64,000 bases of DNA from assembly GCA_965219415.1 (NCBI GenBank), contig CBDCNP010000002.1:3488001-3552000 (forward strand), in the 5' to 3' direction. This document shows positions 3,587 through 52,538 of this stretch, piece after piece. Below the pieces are notes generated by a model. That model saw only the letters and a list, made by a program, of their open reading frames with translations, did not search any database and had not been told where the DNA came from. The DNA comes from Candidatus Marinacidobacterales bacterium. Lineage in GTDB: Bacteria; Acidobacteriota; Vicinamibacteria; Marinacidobacterales; DATDRI01. The position numbers and the translations under genes were made by a program. Position 1 is the stretch's first letter; each line of letters opens with the position of its first letter.

Positions 3587-3762
3587 CGTCCTGTGCCAAA
3601 ACTCGGCCCAGCCGGCATCGACGAAAGAACTGCGTCTATCGAAATCAGGCAAAACTCTAGCACGCGAACAGGTTACGCGGCGGCCGCCAACACTTGACTG
3701 CGGAAGCACCGACCGGAGACTAATCAAGTTCGGTGCGCGCGGATGAATAAATAGAAGGCACA
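3587..3762 (+). mobile_element. Stacked ends: CGTCC-MITE left end, IS1-derived left-end piece (to 3710), MITE right end
   Basis: CGTCCTGTGCCAAAACTCGGC at 3587; GCGGAAGCACC ending 3710; GGATGAATAAATAGAAGGCACA ending 3762. Confidence 0.75.
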
Positions 3763-21940: not shown

Positions 21941-23140
21941 GGTGCTTCCGCAATTAAGTGTTGGCGGCCAGCCCCTAACCGGTCTGCGTGCTAGAGTTTG
22001 AACCAGAATTCCGAAGACACAGTTCTCTCATCGTCAGGGCCGAGCCAAAGTGAAGAATCGCAGATGTCTCAATCTCGCATGTCCGTTGCGGGGCAAAGTC
22101 AGTTCCGGAAACATCGTTCGCCACGGATTCTACCGAACCAGGTCCGGGAAACGCCGTCGATACCGGTGCGGCGAGTGCGGAAAGACGTTCTCCTCGACGA
22201 AAGGCACGCCCTACTACCGTCTCCAACATCGAAGAGCTACTTTCGATGGGGTCATCGCTCTCAGAGTCGAGGGTGTCAGCATTTCCTCGATTTCCCGGAT
22301 CAAAGGGATTGCCTGGAACACCATCGCCCGCTGGCTCGAGAAGGCAGCCCAAGTGTGTCGTCGATTCAATCACAGGAGGATCGCTAGCTTCGCTGCCGAA
22401 GAGCTTCAAGCCGACGAGATTCGCACGTTCGCGGGCAACAAGAAGACACCGAGTTGGGTCTTCGTTACAATCGAAGTCTGGTCTCGGCTCTGGCCATCGA
22501 CGGTGACGGGAAGGCGAAGCTACCGGAACACTCACGCTCTGTTTCGCGACCTTTCGAGACGGATGAATTTCGAGCGTCTTCCCTTGATCGTCACGGATGG
22601 ATTCGAATTCTACCAGAAGGTCATCCGTCGCTTCTTCGGTCCAGCGTGTCTCTACGGCCAGGTCCTAAAAACGCGCAGGAACGATCGCATCATCAAGGTC
22701 GAACGCAGAGCGCTGCACGGAGCCGCGTGGCGATTCGAAGACGCGCTCAATAACTCCGAGGACTCTTCGACATTGAACACGTCGTTCATCGAGCGGTTGA
22801 ATCTGACCATCCGGCAAAGCTCGGCATACCTTTCGAGACGAACGCTTTCCCACGCTCGCTCGACGGAGAGGCTCGATGAGCACCTGGAGTTGCTCCGTTG
22901 CTATTACAACTTCGTCCGACCGCACGGAGCTCTGAAGTTCGGACGTGAGATCCGAACTCCGGCTATGCAAGCCGGTCTCACCACGCGACGGCTCACCTTT
23001 CGAGACATCTTCTTGGCGACGACGATTCCTTTGTGGTCGCGGATCGAGGTTTTCCTGCTCACTGGGGCGCGCAACCCGGTCTCTTCCGCACCTGTACCAC
23101 TGCCCGCAGCCGCGTAGCAACACTTGATGGCGGAAGCACC
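21941..23140 (+). mobile_element. IS1-family element (single-ORF type), full copy
   Basis: IRs GGTGCTTCCGC.AT.AAGTGTTG; no TSD. Confidence 0.9.
22050..23117 (+). CDS. IS1-family transposase
   Basis: Zn ribbon CLNLAC...YRCGECGKTF, HTH, ELQADE, LIVTDG, NTSFIERLNLTIR. Confidence 0.9.
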   Translation: MKNRRCLNLACPLRGKVSSGNIVRHGFYRTRSGKRRRYRCGECGKTFSSTKGTPYYRLQHRRATFDGVIALRVEGVSISSISRIKGIAWNTIARWLEKAAQVCRRFNHRRIASFAAEELQADEIRTFAGNKKTPSWVFVTIEVWSRLWPSTVTGRRSYRNTHALFRDLSRRMNFERLPLIVTDGFEFYQKVIRRFFGPACLYGQVLKTRRNDRIIKVERRALHGAAWRFEDALNNSEDSSTLNTSFIERLNLTIRQSSAYLSRRTLSHARSTERLDEHLELLRCYYNFVRPHGALKFGREIRTPAMQAGLTTRRLTFRDIFLATTIPLWSRIEVFLLTGARNPVSSAPVPLPAAA

Positions 23141-47452: not shown

Positions 47453-49420
47453 TTAAACGCGGGTAAGCGCCATCGTCGAAATCCGCCGACCGGTGTCAGC
47501 AAAATGCTGGATTTCCTCGGGTTTGAGCGGGCGGTTGAGAATAGAGCGCTCACGGTAGGAGAGCCATTTCTTGAGAACCTGGTAGCCGCCCAGTTTGTAG
47601 CGCCAGACGGAAGCAGGGATGTTACGCCAGAAGGCGCGGGCATTGAGATACACGTCGAACGTCGTCTCACCAAGGGTGGCAACTGTCTCGCCCAAAGCGA
47701 CCAGCTCCTCCGGCGTGTAGGGACGCTCGACAACCCGGCCTTGGCCAGGCATCACGGCGTCGCCAATTCCGAAGTGTCCCCATCCTGCCGTCACCGAAAA
47801 ATCGTCGCCGGTCATGTTGTGTCCGTCCGTCGTTGTGGGTACGGCGATTGCGACAATCTCCGGCCGCAATGCGCCTTGCGTGACACCCGGGACGGGCGTC
47901 TCCGGATCGAGCAGCCGGGCGAGGTCCCGACCCTGCACCGCTGACGCGGCGAGCACCTCCGCCGCGCCCTCTGCCGCACCGTCCGGCCAACCTGGTAGCG
48001 GAATGCGCGGCCATTCCATGCGCAGTGCCCCGGCGTTCGCCTTGCGGTATGCAGGATCGTGCAGCACGGCCAGGACGTGATGGAACAGGTCTTCCACACC
48101 CATGCCGAGACGGTCGAGATAGCGCTGAACAGTTGCTGATATGTTGGGGCGGCGCACGCCATCGCCATCATTCCCTATACCGTCTTCACGGAGCCTCACC
48201 GGAATGCAAGTCGCGCCCCTGTCCATGAGATCGAGACAACCGATATGCGAAATCACCTGTGGAGGCGACCATTCCCTACGCGGTTTCTGCTGCGCGACCA
48301 GCCACCAATTTCCCTTGAACACATGGGGCCAGTAGTCTGCGCGCTTCTCGTCGAGCAGCTTCGTTTCCGACTCCCAATAGAGCCAGCGATTGTCGAAAGG
48401 CCGGTAGGTGAAACTGACAAAACCGTCTTCGGTCGGGCCGCCGCGCGCGAGCAGCGCATCGCGGATTGCTCGGGCATCAAACCGCGCCGTGGTCTTCATC
48501 ACGCTCGGATAGCGGCGCGCGATCTCTTCATGACTCACATCTGTATTGAAGTAATCGGCGATCCGCGCCTTGAGCCGGTCCAGATCGACGTCGACGAGAA
48601 ATCCGTCGCGGCTCGTCTTGACGCCAGGAAACGAGACCGGGAACAGATCGGGCAGCGCCGGCCAGTCGAACCAGTTCTTGCTCACGGCCATTGGCTTGAA
48701 CGGCAAGCCGAGTCGAAGATTGGGCTCTAATGCCGAATAGCCCGTATCGATCCCCAGGGTGTCGAGGCTGTCTAACATTGCTTGCCGTCTCTCGTCGCCT
48801 CTTGCCTGATGGAAATCGCGATATAGGATGCGTCCGCCTGTCGGTGTATCGGTGACAGTCCCCGACCTGGAAAGCAGCACCGCACGATGCGACAATACCC
48901 GACTAAGGTACTCGCCCAGACCCGCGCCCACGTCGTGAGCGAAGGCCCGCGGCTTTTCAAGACGGCGGTCGAACGCCTCGGCACTGTCAGCCAGCCGGAA
49001 CGTTTCCAGCTTCGAAGGACGGCCCGCCGCATCTATGCCCACTAGCACGAAGTCGCGCGTATTCGTCACCAGCACCAGCTGGTAGCGGCTCCAGTAGCGG
49101 CTTACCTGCTCGCCGTCTGCGGTCAGCCACGCATCATCTCCGACGCCCTTCACCTCGACCACGCCGCAGGCCGGTATCTGTCCCTCGCGCAGCCGGCCCT
49201 TCTGCACTTGCTTCGCCGCGTAGAGGCCGAAGTCGGGATGCCCCGCGCCCTGCTCCGCAAGCTCGCCGACGCAAAACACCTTTGGCCTGAGCGTCGCACC
49301 GATGGCATTGAGCAGGTTCGCGAGTGGCCCATAGCTCGACCGCTCCCCGGTCGAGCCGCCCGAAGCGCGCACCCGCCGGAGATCGGCGAAGTAGGTCTCG
49401 ACCGCCGCTGTCAGTTGCAA
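47453..49420 (-). pseudogene. Type IIG/ISP-like restriction-modification protein with in-frame internal deletion
   Basis: N-terminal PDFG...VEVK nuclease; C-terminal GVKTSRD, YRPFD, PRIPLP, YKLGGYQVLKKWL; no methyltransferase motifs between them. Confidence 0.7.
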
Positions 49421-49489
49421 TTGTGCAAACGCCTCAAATTTCCTATTCTCTTTTTCGATGGCTTACGCCGAAAATGGACGCGATTTTCG

Positions 49490-49720
49490 GGTGCTTCTGC
49501 CATCAAGTGTTGCTACGCCTCCAAAAGCATTTGAATACTAGTGTCAGTTAGCATGCGTGTGTCGGCGAACGCCATCGCGTCTAATTAAGGATGTCGGTGT
49601 GCCCACGAAGATGTCCTTGAACGTCAGGCACCGCGTGGTCAGCCCAGCCGGCATCGCCGAAATAACTGCGTCTCTCGAAATCAGGCTCAAACTCTAGCAC
49701 GCGAGCAGGTTGCGCGGCAG
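49490..49720. mobile_element. IS1-derived MITE type 2 (related pieces at 3610-3710 and 54750-54885)
   Basis: GGTGCTTCTGCCATCAAGTGTTGCTAC end; CAAACTCTAGCACG segment from the IS1 left end. Confidence 0.7.
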
Positions 49721-50099
49721 CCCGTCGTGTCCGAAATTCGAACTGAGTCGAAAGACCGAATCCTGGAGGCGTTCTCGAAATTCGCGGAGACCAGCCGACG
49801 CGGCACTAGGTCTTCGATAGGCGTTCCCGAGCAGAGCTCTCCTCTAGACCATTCGTTCCGTCCAGCTGGCGCGCCCGAACTCCTATGCCGCCGCGCGATG
49901 ATAATAGCGGAGCAAGCCGCCCAATCGCTTACGACATCGCACCTTCCCGTAGAGACTTCCGACGCGTTCTTCCGCTTCAAGCAACGCGTTCCCCAGCCGG
50001 TGCTTCCGCCATCAAGTGATGGAATGGACTCCTCCACTGACATAGACGGCATCGATGTGCCAAAGTCAGTCGAATACGCATCGAAAAGGAGGAGTCCGA

Positions 50100-51131
50100 A
50101 TGAAAGATACGACAATCGCTGTGGATCTTGCAAAGAACGTCTTCGAGATTGCCATCTCGGGAGAAGCGGGGAAGGTGTCCAAGCAACTCCGTGTGAGTCG
50201 ACCCAAATTGGTGTCGTTCTTTGCCAAACAGAGCGCTGCCACCGTGCTTCTCGAAGCCTGCGGCTCGGCTCACTTCTGGGCAAGGACGTTCCGAAGGTTG
50301 GGACACGACGTCGTCCTGCTCCCACCTCACCTCGTGAGGCCGTATCGACGCGGGAGCAAGAACGACCGCGCCGACACGAAGGCGTTGCTCGAGGCCTACA
50401 GGAACGAGGAGCTTCTTCCCGTACCCATCAAGTCCGTGCACCAGCACACCCTCGCTGCGCTCCATCGCCTGCGCTCAGGATGGCTCTCCACACGGACCGC
50501 ACGCATCAATGCCGTACGCGGGCTCCTGCGCGAACTCGGATTCATCATCCCAAAGGGCGCTCACTTCGTCGTGCCCGCCCTCTTCGAACTCGTCGAAGAC
50601 GCTGATTCTGATTTGCCCGACGTGCTCCGTTCGCATCTCCGTGATGCCTGCTCCGAGATTCGAGAACTCAAGGACAAGTGCGCTAGCATCGAGCACGAGC
50701 TCAAGGCGCTCACCAAGCAGCTTCCTGAAGTCCAACGACTTCTCGCCATTCCCGGCATCGGACTTCTGGCCGCGACCGCCATCGTGGGCTTCGTCGGCGA
50801 TCTTCGCCGCTTCCCATCGGGGCGCCGCTTCTCGAGCTACCTCGGCCTAGTTCCCAAGGAAAACTCCAGTGGCGACATTCGCCGCCTCGGACGCATCACC
50901 AAGCGTGGCGACTCCTACCTCCGTATGCTCCTCACCCAGGGCGGGCGCGCCGTGCTCCGCGCGGCGAACGTCAGCAAGAGCCCGCCCGACAAGCTCCGCG
51001 CCTGGGCTCGGAAGGTCCACCGCTCGCGGGGACACAACAAGGCCGTGATTGCTGTCGCCAACAAACTCGCCCGGATCGTCTGGGCCGTCTCCACCCGCGA
51101 GAGTGAATTCCAGTCGCCGGTGGCCGCTTAG
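50100..51131 (+). CDS. IS110-family DEDD recombinase
   Basis: AVDLAK, LLEAC, KNDRAD, IPGIG, GLVPKENSSG, AVANKLARI; AGGAGGAG RBS. Confidence 0.95.
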   Translation: MKDTTIAVDLAKNVFEIAISGEAGKVSKQLRVSRPKLVSFFAKQSAATVLLEACGSAHFWARTFRRLGHDVVLLPPHLVRPYRRGSKNDRADTKALLEAYRNEELLPVPIKSVHQHTLAALHRLRSGWLSTRTARINAVRGLLRELGFIIPKGAHFVVPALFELVEDADSDLPDVLRSHLRDACSEIRELKDKCASIEHELKALTKQLPEVQRLLAIPGIGLLAATAIVGFVGDLRRFPSGRRFSSYLGLVPKENSSGDIRRLGRITKRGDSYLRMLLTQGGRAVLRAANVSKSPPDKLRAWARKVHRSRGHNKAVIAVANKLARIVWAVSTRESEFQSPVAA

Positions 51132-51199
51132 ATTTAGAGGCTCCACTTTCGTGTTTTCCTTTTTCCCTTCCAAAAGAGGCTGCGACGATACCCATCCAA

Positions 51200-51360
51200 C
51201 TGATGGCGTACCGGTCGGACCGGCGCGGGGTCAAGCCAATAGCAACACTGGCCCTAAGAGGTCGTTCAAAGTGATTGGCTCCTCGCGCGCGGATTTTCCA
51301 TCATGGCCCGGAGCACCCAAGACGCTCCTCACTGAGGCCGAAGATACGTTTGCAGTCTGA
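51200..51360 (+). ncRNA. Predicted bridge/seek RNA of the IS1111 element
   Basis: Stem AGCCAAT/ATTGGCT enclosing target-matching segments; second region matches the donor junction; boundaries approximate. Confidence 0.75.
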
Positions 51361-51589
51361 CCCACTCGTCACGACGCGATGGATGCGCAGCTTCGATGGA
51401 AGATTTATTAAGAAAGGGGCGTGACTAGAAAGAAAGGGGCTTGACTAGAGGAGTCCAGATATGTTGCTACACGGCTGCGGGCAGTGGTTCAGGTGCGGAA
51501 GAGACCGGGTTGCGCGCCCTACTGAGCAGGAAAACCTCGATCCGCGACCACAAAGGAATCGTCGTCGCCAAGAAGATGTCTCGAAGTGA

Positions 51590-52110
51590 AGCGGCCTATC
51601 GTAATAATGTAAGACCAAGCTCTTGGAAAGATTGATTTTCCTGAAACCAGTAACGTCGTTGAATTGAATAATGCCAATACTGTCAAGGTGACTTAGTTTC
51701 TCGAAATTAATCCCGTTTCTACTATAGATTTCTGCTTCAGAATCGAACACTAACGCCACCAAATCTCCATGTGTCCAGACGAATCCGCAGAACTTGGTGA
51801 ACAGCACGGCTTCGGTTTTATCGAGATCCGAAAGGAAATTGACAGTCCTCTTCGAGTAGGTCCCGGGAGAGTTCGCCTCGCCGGACAGAACACGCGACCA
51901 CAGCTCCTGCATCTCATTGTCAGACACGATCCGGGATTTTTCGAAGAAGTTGACGATCCAATCGTCTTCGATAAAATCGGGCTTCGCGTTTTCGTCCAAC
52001 TGAAGGCAGGGCTTTAGCGGCAATGTCTTCCATGTTCTTCTGGCGTTGCGCTTCCTCCTCGATCCATCGTCGCGCGGCTCGTCGATGCAGGTCAGTTATC
52101 TCAATTTCAG
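51590..52110 (-). pseudogene. DUF2806-like protein fragment (frameshifted, truncated)
   Basis: EITDLHRRAARRWIEEEAQRQKNMEDI; EDDWIVNFF, EMQELWSRVLSGEANSPG. Confidence 0.65.
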
Positions 52111-52159
52111 CATGATATTTCCGTTATCGGCAGTCAACAACGCGCAAAAGCCGTGACCC

Positions 52160-52307
52160 CGTCCTGTGCCAAAACTCGGCCCTTTTGAAATAGACCACAA
52201 ATCAGCAGCTTAGACGCCCTTGGAATCCGCGCAGAATCCAGGGTATTTCGCGCCGCAGGGCTGACTTCCGACCCATGGGGCTGGCGGATGAATAAATAGA
52301 AGGCACA
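52160..52307 (+). mobile_element. CGTCC-MITE short form, complete
   Basis: Near-identical to 15849-15995. Confidence 0.85.
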
Positions 52308-52453
52308 ACCTCGCCACGGCTTTTAGGTTTGACATTTTTCGGGGTTGTGCGGTAGGCTCCAATTCGTTGGCTCCTTGTTAGGCTTGGCTTCCTTGGCTAG
52401 GGGTTGACATGCTCAGCACACACACTCGATTCGCCACCGTCGACGAATTGATT

Positions 52454-52497
52454 GAGAGCCGCGAAAAGCCCGGCCCCTGCTGGGCTTTTCGTGTCTC
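52454..52497. terminator. Possible bidirectional intrinsic terminator
   Basis: CGAAAAGCCCGG-loop-CTGGGCTTTTCG hairpin. Confidence 0.5.
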
Positions 52498-52538
52498 TGC
52501 GTCACTTTCATAGTCGGAGCAATCCTGCCACCCGACCG

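Follow-up and report, generated by a model that had tools for sequence, protein, structure and literature searches.

The window analysed here is a stretch of 64,000 nucleotides from the genome of a "Candidatus Marinacidobacterales" bacterium (assembly GCA_965219415.1, contig CBDCNP010000002.1, positions 3,488,001 to 3,552,000), and it carries, at positions 50019-51461, an insertion sequence (IS) of the IS1111 type together with the two halves of the site that it has split. We consider it highly probable that this is an intact element, active or recently active, with a bridge/seekRNA encoded downstream of the transposase gene that guides insertion into TCAAG-TG-TTGCTA, a site found in the right-end terminal repeat of an IS1-like element and in miniature inverted-repeat transposable elements (MITEs). 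The element, its ends and the split target are arranged as follows, in coordinates of the window:

49999-50016, + strand: left target half GGTGCTTCCGCCATCAAG, the outermost 18 bases of the terminal repeat at the IS1-family right end, present at all left junctions
50017-50018, + strand: TG core of the left junction; uninterrupted sites have a single TG between the halves
50019-51461, + strand: IS1111-type element, one complete copy, with TG flanking each side
50019-50024, + strand: left terminal extension ATGGAA, the donor part predicted to pair with the 5' donor guide
50025-50034, + strand: left subterminal inverted repeat TGGACTCCTC, a perfect 10-bp match with 51448-51457
50100-51131, + strand: transposase/recombinase gene, 343 amino acids, with AGGAGG ahead of the start
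51411-51450, + strand: two tandem 20-bp units, each with a -35-like hexamer (GTGACT; TTGACT at 51441-51446)
51448-51457, + strand: right subterminal inverted repeat GAGGAGTCCA
51458-51461, + strand: right terminal extension GATA
51462-51463, + strand: TG core of the right junction
51464-51585, + strand: right target half and the rest of the 142-bp IS1-like right-end remnant; the guide-matched TTGCTA lies at 51464-51469

All coordinates and strings given for this locus in a first-pass annotation, including TG at both junctions, TTGCTAC from 51464 and a stem formed by 51234-51240 and 51274-51280, are present in the sequence. Its assignment of the element to the IS1111 type was borne out by the protein matches, the downstream non-coding region, the subterminal repeats and a transposase motif. 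The 343-amino-acid protein scored 302.9 bits against the NCBIfam model NF033542 "IS110 family RNA-guided transposase" (cut-off 140) and combines the two domains of the IS110 family, namely an N-terminal DEDD/RuvC-like domain (PF01548 DEDD_Tnp_IS110, 45.9 bits, cut-off 29) and a C-terminal PF02371 Transposase_20 (85.5 bits, cut-off 21.3). IS1111-type elements are defined by subterminal repeats, a downstream non-coding region and a transposase of 330-350 amino acids with the motif GL-P----S(T)G (Siddiquee et al., PMC11187229). The translation contains GLVPKENSSG, which fits the motif, and non-coding DNA amounts to 330 nt 3' of the gene (51132-51461) versus 81 nt 5' of it (50019-50099). The 10-bp subterminal repeats, whose motif recurs in homologues, fall within the 7-17 bp of Durrant et al. 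(PMC11208160) and are one base below the 11-13 bp of PMC11187229. The best named relative of the protein is an ISPa25-family transposase with 45.9% identity over 99% of the length. The boundaries of the element are fixed, because uninterrupted sites show them.

The element has recently expanded in this genome (8.05 Mb, three contigs, C1 to C3), where 30 complete copies were found that are 99.4-100% identical, the transposase being identical among the 10 copies scored, along with three right-truncated fragments, a unit that consists of the right end only, and another right-end scrap of 26 bp. The same 18-mer is present at 33 of 33 left junctions (30 exact, three with one change), always in the same orientation relative to the repeat, and the sequence beyond it, upstream of 49999, is unrelated between copies. 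The right junction reads TG and then TTGCTA in 29 of 32 cases, the three deviants showing TG followed by TTGGCG, internal element sequence, and TG with TTGCTA after one extra 20-bp right-end unit (C3:4789523). Past TTGCTAC, the right flanks split into at least three unrelated families. With up to three mismatches the 18-mer was located at 499 places, 466 of them without the element and with the halves contiguous through a single TG; one such unoccupied site lies in the window at 49490-49516. The insertions in this genome show what is expected of an IS1111 element: a specific target, a fixed orientation, and nothing duplicated besides the shared core.

Occupancy depends sharply on the bases next to the core. 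Sites reading TCAAG|TG|TTGCTA are occupied in 28 of 107 cases, versus 1 of 303 for the listed sister variants (those with TTGGTG, TTGGCG, TTGGTA or TTGGCA on the right, or with TTAAG and others on the left), with a Fisher p of 5.7e-17 in a test that left out rarer unlisted variants and three occupied truncated sites that could not be classified. The single copy at a sister variant (C3:5105454-5106900) has a perfect left half and the right half TTGGCGG. The left end of the same IS1-like element, which differs at one left and three right positions, is never occupied. We also considered whether occupied IS1-like right ends are more often truncated than free ones; full length was retained by 4 of 16 occupied and 30 of 58 uninterrupted ends, and the difference was not significant (Fisher p = 0.088).

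The nature of the split sequence follows from its other copies. Inverted pairs of the repeat ends form clusters at spacings near 1200 and 244 bp, with 36 plus/minus pairs 1100-1320 bp apart. The 1200-bp element has imperfect terminal repeats of about 25 bp and codes for a protein of 355 amino acids (L031:224-1291), whose gene reads towards the split end and has its stop codon 3 nt away from the TG. This makes the split end the right one, and the arrangement is that of IS1, a short element with terminal inverted repeats and a gene ending near the right repeat. By blastn, positions 19-142 of the 1200-bp element align to 51462-51585 at 97.6%, and the window retains only a 142-bp remnant of its right end (49999-50018 plus 51462-51585). 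Among NCBIfam models the protein matched IS1 family transposase best (E 2.6e-23), its 83 bits falling short of the cut-off of 100, and Pfam DDE_Tnp_IS1 gave 22.4 bits, below 24.1. A database search gave 2939 homologues; among 120 listed, 67 carry PF03400 and seven the JGI name "IS1 family transposase". On these grounds the host element was accepted as a probable member of the IS1 family, its own protein scoring below both curated thresholds, and the earlier reading of the split sequence as an IS1-family right end probably holds.

In total, about 500 IS1-type repeat ends are present in the genome (499 at up to three mismatches, 299 at up to one). They come from the 1200-bp IS1-like element, from the 244-bp MITE and from no fewer than two other families resembling MITEs. 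The ends are dense on C2 and in the 1.5-5.7 Mb section of contig C3, and hardly any occur on C1 or in the initial 1.5 Mb of C3, at an unchanged GC content (0.59). Within the window, repeat ends lie at 3710, 8240, 13001, 14174, 20183, 21941-23140, 33729, 41754, 49490, 53395 and 54885. The MITE-like element at 49490-49722 carries a perfect free target (CATCAAG TG TTGCTAC) 510 bp upstream of the occupied site.

The non-coding region downstream of the transposase gene is predicted to encode an RNA of about 150 nt with the following parts:

51211-51362, + strand: predicted bridge/seekRNA gene, scoring 125.4 bits with covariance model R1
51213-51220 with 51355-51362, + strand: closing stem, enclosing the target arm and the donor multiloop
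51223-51288, + strand: target-binding arm, with helices H1 (51223-51230/51281-51288) and H2 (51235-51240/51274-51279)
51240-51249, + strand: 5' target guide TAGCAACACT, an exact 10/10 reverse complement of the target AGTGTTGCTA
51250-51253/51260-51263, + strand: hairpin H3, GGCC/GGTC, in the target internal loop
51264-51273, + strand: 3' target guide GTTCAAAGTG, of the same sense as left target and core, which would pair with the bottom strand
51296-51304, + strand: 5' donor guide TTCCATCAT, complement of the last right-end base, TG and the left extension
51305-51339, + strand: stem H4, GGCC/GGCC (51305-51308/51336-51339), enclosing hairpin H5 (51310-51314/51324-51328)
51340-51348, + strand: 3' donor guide GAAGATACG, of the same sense as right-end AGATA and core

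Homologous transposase genes (36-61% identity) were collected from 41 of 201 genomes of the same class, with one more from a scan of the genome collection, and the downstream regions of 20 homologues could be aligned. The structure was tested on a sequence-only alignment. RNAalifold on the MAFFT alignment returned 11 pairs only (the outer target stem and the GGCC stem), and a fuller structure of 35 pairs was then specified by hand. In this structure 81.9% of cells are paired, versus 32.8-46.0% with the 3' partners slid, and 23 of 35 pairs show compensatory change, versus 10-18 with partners slid; none of 500 column shuffles reached the observed values. After refitting to the model the figures rose to 87.1% and 26 compensated pairs, in a refitted alignment that leans towards the structure. 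Helix H1 has compensatory changes in seven of eight pairs (92.9% of cells paired), H5 in five of five, and H4 is nearly invariant with 100% of cells paired. The minimum free energy (MFE) fold of the single sequence 51211-51364 yields the same helices and the same layout: a closing stem, a long arm with the inner stem AGCCAAT/ATTGGCT, an internal loop with a small hairpin, and the GGCC/GGCC stem with its hairpin. Model R1 (146 positions) has 31 matches in the genome, all within copies of the element, and it also matches four homologues outside its building set and, at 95.7 bits, the region 3' of an ISPa25-family transposase gene, a sequence equally outside that set.

Two further features of the fold should be mentioned. 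An extra 4-bp stem closing the donor loop (51289-51292/51350-51353), seen in the single-sequence fold, was rejected; its two G-C pairs are invariant and the other two pairs often fail in homologues. A pyrimidine-rich segment after the stop codon (51140-51180) pairs in the MFE fold with purine-rich 51395-51440, enclosing the whole RNA, and may represent the stem of a longer precursor.

The complementarity between this RNA and the insertion site is exact on the 5' side of the target loop, where the guide complements the top strand across the last two left-target bases, the core TG and the six bases TTGCTA. Five contiguous bases of the 3' target guide, AAGTG (51269-51273), recur in the left target and core, and with one A bulged, 51265-51273 reads TCAAGTG; the two guides overlap on AGTG in the target. 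The complement of the top strand lies 5' of that of the bottom strand, with overlap, which is the order of IS1111 seekRNAs (PMC11187229). Among 2000 dinucleotide shuffles of the non-coding region, a target complement of at least 10 nt arose in nine.

The case for guidance rests on the repeated insertion sites and on covariation across the family. In 16 homologues the reverse complement of the 5' guide (10 aligned positions) agrees on average at 8.06 positions with the right junction of the same element and at 4.75 with foreign right junctions; in 15 homologues the 3' guide (8 positions) agrees at 5.4 with the left junction of the same element and at 3.85 with foreign ones. None of 20000 permutations was as high in either test, that is, p of about 5e-5 on each side. 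The first test dropped L051, which has the same guide as the window, and L113, L122 and L124, which come without a right flank; the second dropped L051, L129 and L131, whose left ends are unreliably located, and L127 and L130, which come without a left end. A natural variant is provided by L050, a single copy with about 90% DNA identity to the window element, in which TAACAATCGT and TTTGCAGCG replace the two guides; it is flanked on the left by sequence ending in CTCCAG and on the right by sequence starting with ATTGTTA, the bases that these guides predict if G:T and U:G are allowed at the core. No further copies of this guide variant were found in the five related genomes searched. Two copies from related genomes with the window-type guide, L052 and L053, are inserted outside the IS1-type repeat, and TCAAG, TG and TTGCT are all that their sites have in common with the usual target. 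Site occupancy, these insertions and the covariation agree with the guide reading of the first-pass annotation, and two of the checks that it had suggested, folding with a covariance model of homologues and mapping of all genomic copies, came out in its favour, with a compensated structure, loop bases that covary with their own flanks, and a single kind of left junction.

On the donor side, a complement of at least 9 nt to the abutted ends of the element occurred in 33 of 2000 shuffles. In a variant of 92% identity the 3' donor segment is AGATATG, an exact match, and its 5' donor guide differs from the left end solely at positions that G:U pairs can absorb; across homologues, a donor segment of AGATA or ATATA follows a right end of CCAGATA or CCATATA. 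One refinement of the first-pass reading is that the donor-binding bases are placed in a multiloop, where target arm, GGCC stem and closing stem meet, and not in a simple internal loop. The right end is where IS1111 bridge RNAs are situated, many IS1111 elements hold their donor bases in a multiloop, and rG:dT pairs are tolerated (PMC11208160).

Distant homologues differ at the core. In L109, L111, L112, L127, L133, L119, L120, L128 and L072 the left junction always has TG before ATG, while the right end is followed by CG, CC, GC or GG, in agreement with the 5' guide, and CG terminates most of the 3' guides. Either the TG is part of the left end, and the cores of donor and target may differ, or the two junctions keep different strands of a mismatched core.

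Several observations weigh against the guided-insertion reading. In the shuffles, a same-strand match to the left target of 6 nt appeared 1404 times in 2000, so that the five contiguous matching bases of the 3' target guide are not unusual by chance; because of these counts the 5' halves of the loops are individually unlikely by chance and the 3' halves are not, and the claim that both guide loops are readable stands for the 5' halves (9 and 33 of 2000 shuffles) and is weak for the 3' halves taken alone. The 3' donor guide (AGATACG, 51342-51348) carries CG in place of the TG of the junction. Since the homologues are kin, the permutation p values are too optimistic about independence, and right-side fits are poor in L110 and L121 (6/10) and in L133, L129 and L131 (7/10). 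The terminal extensions of six (left) and four (right) bases with one TG do not agree with the 7/3 or 6/3 of PMC11187229, whose counting rule was not re-derived here, and the 10-bp subterminal repeats are off the typical length given there; the extension lengths are a difference in a secondary feature. An Rfam scan of 49000-52500 with E up to 1 returned two chance microRNA matches and no bridge RNA family. Finally, among ten public sequencing runs (three recorded as RNA, one guessed to be RNA, the rest unlabelled), contigs of the RNA-labelled runs X1-X4 on 49900-51600 cover scattered parts of the gene, and a transcript over 51211-51362 is neither shown nor excluded by them. One contig each in X1 and X2 lacks what stands between 50018 and 51495 and has 31 other letters in its place; we read these as probably an unoccupied repeat end of a related organism.

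Given these observations, the following course of events is proposed. The RNA of about 150 nt would be transcribed and processed from the region 3' of the transposase gene, and the internal loop of its first arm would hold the two target guides, which together would specify TCAAG-TG-TTGCTA. That site is available in about 100 copies in this genome, because it is situated 18 bp into a right-end terminal repeat that an IS1-family element and MITEs have in common. The multiloop guides around the GGCC stem match the abutted ends of the element itself, i.e. right extension, TG and left extension. By analogy with IS621, ISEc11 and ISKpn4, a complex of recombinase and RNA would join a circular copy with the target, strand exchange taking place at TG; insertion would always occur in one orientation, without duplication beyond the core, and would leave the outer 20 bp of the IS1-type repeat on one side of the element and the remainder on the other. 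By the same analogy, the element may be a complete and potentially reprogrammable system, as was first suggested.

Expression of the circular form may be served by the ends themselves. The hexamer TTGACT (51441-51446) stands immediately 5' of the subterminal repeat, a TTGAC- or TTGC-type hexamer occupies the same place in 11 homologues whose right ends were read, and TGATG opens the left end in nearly all homologues. With the ends abutted, TTGACT would be followed after 18 nt by TG, a single base and the TGGAAT of the left end, an extended -10-like arrangement as read from the two ends only. Circular forms of the family are reported to carry a junction promoter (PMC11187229); the arrangement of the two ends fits such a promoter, which could explain the TGATG at left ends. 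A scan for promoters in linear sequence found none in 49900-51600, a promoter made from abutted ends being invisible to it, and the same scan gave two terminator-like sites, within shuffle expectation. The 20-bp unit with the -35-like hexamer is tandem in window-type copies, and single in three copies of this genome and in all relatives seen.

Among other explanations, the one that fares best accepts RNA guidance and makes the link to IS1 incidental: the guide would specify a word of 12-13 nt that is abundant through a burst of IS1-type elements, with no dedicated parasitism. We regard this as possible, if unlikely. The insertions L052 and L053, with the same guide at word-containing sites outside the repeat, speak for it, as does the occurrence of the word at just one of the two IS1-like ends and in some MITE families only; by simple arithmetic, an 8-Mb genome should contain a given 13-mer about 0.2 times by chance, and the repeat is therefore effectively the sole available target. 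In the other direction, the same guide and repeat target are kept in five related genomes (92-98% protein identity), which suggests a stable association, and published IS1111 members keep repeated targets too (REP, attC, transposon ends). Of the target originally proposed, the IS1-family terminal repeat is retained, and the part recognised is narrowed to about 12-13 nt that occur in MITEs also, and not in the IS1-like element alone.

Recognition of the site by the transposase alone, or by a host factor on the IS1-type repeat, would make the complementarity a by-product, e.g. a remnant of an earlier site. The RNA itself has not been observed and the 3' halves of both loops are statistically weak alone, which would suit such a view; it is nonetheless very unlikely, since guide positions change with the flanks in the 16 and 15 homologues, both loop halves and both flanks have changed in L050 at about 90% DNA identity, insertions outside the repeat keep the guide-covered bases only, and the helices around the loops are maintained by compensatory changes. 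Moreover, the RNA is experimentally required in related IS1111 elements (PMC11187229). The last alternative, that the left 18 bases and the right TTGCTAC, being on every copy, are part of the element and its true ends lie further out, is refuted by the 466 element-free sites with contiguous halves, by the presence of these halves at the bounds of a 1200-bp element with its own transposase gene and of the 244-bp MITE, and by the unrelated families of right flanks. We thus retain guided insertion by an IS1111-type element as the preferred reading.

Insertion into the ends of other transposons has precedents. IS4321 and IS5075 target the terminal inverted repeats of Tn21-family transposons, and are similar to the present element in being of the IS1111 type with an orientation-fixed target inside the terminal repeat of another transposable element; the window element differs by its host, an IS1-family insertion sequence and MITEs, by the acidobacterial genome and by the number of targets, about 100. 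A defined target is given for both in PMC11187229, where repetitive extragenic palindromic (REP) sequences, attC sites and one short linear site are named as known targets and that of IS4321 is mentioned. The IS110/IS1111 elements ISPa11, ISPpu9 and ISPpu10 likewise have a highly repeated short genomic target, the REP sequences, which, unlike the present one, are not transposable element ends.

Kinship was also seen with ISPa25, ISKpn4 and ISPst6, IS1111 elements whose targets are integron attC sites. ISPa25 provides both the nearest named transposase and the R1 match with all helices, and the group has the same guide order with the top-strand complement first (PMC11187229). These elements differ in their attC target and, for ISKpn4 and ISPst6, in an RNA that is experimentally proven, whereas the RNA described here is predicted from sequence. 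The full-length R1 match (L164:2320-2461, + strand) lies 3' of the ISPa25-family gene in an integron of a Pseudomonas aeruginosa plasmid, between qacEdelta1/sul1 and blaOXA-17 cassettes. IS621 and ISCro4, bridge recombinases of the IS110 group with solved structures, are alike in having a two-domain recombinase and two guide pairs that overlap at a 2-nt core (PMC11208160), and only the C-terminal domain of their proteins is detectably similar (E 2.4e-8 and 9.1e-8). They differ in an RNA located upstream, in the left end, a 5' loop side that pairs with the bottom strand, and a simple internal donor loop (PMC11208160).

Partial tandem copies were encountered at C3:3315125-3316855 and in L034, L042, L043, L047, L048 and L059. 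In these a copy has its right end fused to some internal position of a second copy (for instance just before 51176 of the window copy, or inside the transposase gene), and the joining points read xAG or xCG and then TG, resembling half a target. They look like products of half-matched off-target recombination of the element with itself. A preprint of 2026 reportedly mentions half-match recombination in its title. As for the neighbourhood of the element, the reading frames on either side, both on the minus strand, correspond to a protein with a Type ISP restriction-enzyme C-terminal specificity domain (47453-49420) and a DUF2806 protein (51445-52023); the latter frame, as listed, reaches into the IS1-like remnant and on into the element's right tip.

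Systems of this kind, and the habit of targeting the end of another transposon, are already known. The target class, an IS1-family end with MITEs, and the lineage "Candidatus Marinacidobacterales" are new to the literature searched: no IS110/IS1111 element targeting IS1 ends or MITEs was found there, in line with the initial impression that this class is undescribed, the supplementary target tables for hundreds of elements in PMC11187229 and PMC11208160, where such a case could stand, lying outside the search. Because the mechanism is known, the value of the finding is in documentation and comparison, with no new concept. It offers a natural, internally controlled data set on the specificity of an IS1111-type guide, with about 100 perfect targets and several hundred near-targets, one to four guide positions off, in one genome, and an occupancy that is nearly all-or-none. 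Added to this are the new target class, the natural guide variant L050 and a covariance model of 146 positions tying acidobacterial elements to the ISPa25/ISKpn4 group. A stronger proposition, that the element is a dedicated hyperparasite of the IS1/MITE burst and, jointly, that IS1111-type recombination can do without identical donor and target cores, is in our opinion clearly improbable. If the element were such a hyperparasite, it would spread solely via ends made by another transposon, each insertion severing the outer 20 bp of the right repeat of that transposon, and its dependence on IS1-type elements, combined with their disabling, would amount to an RNA-guided antagonism between transposons.

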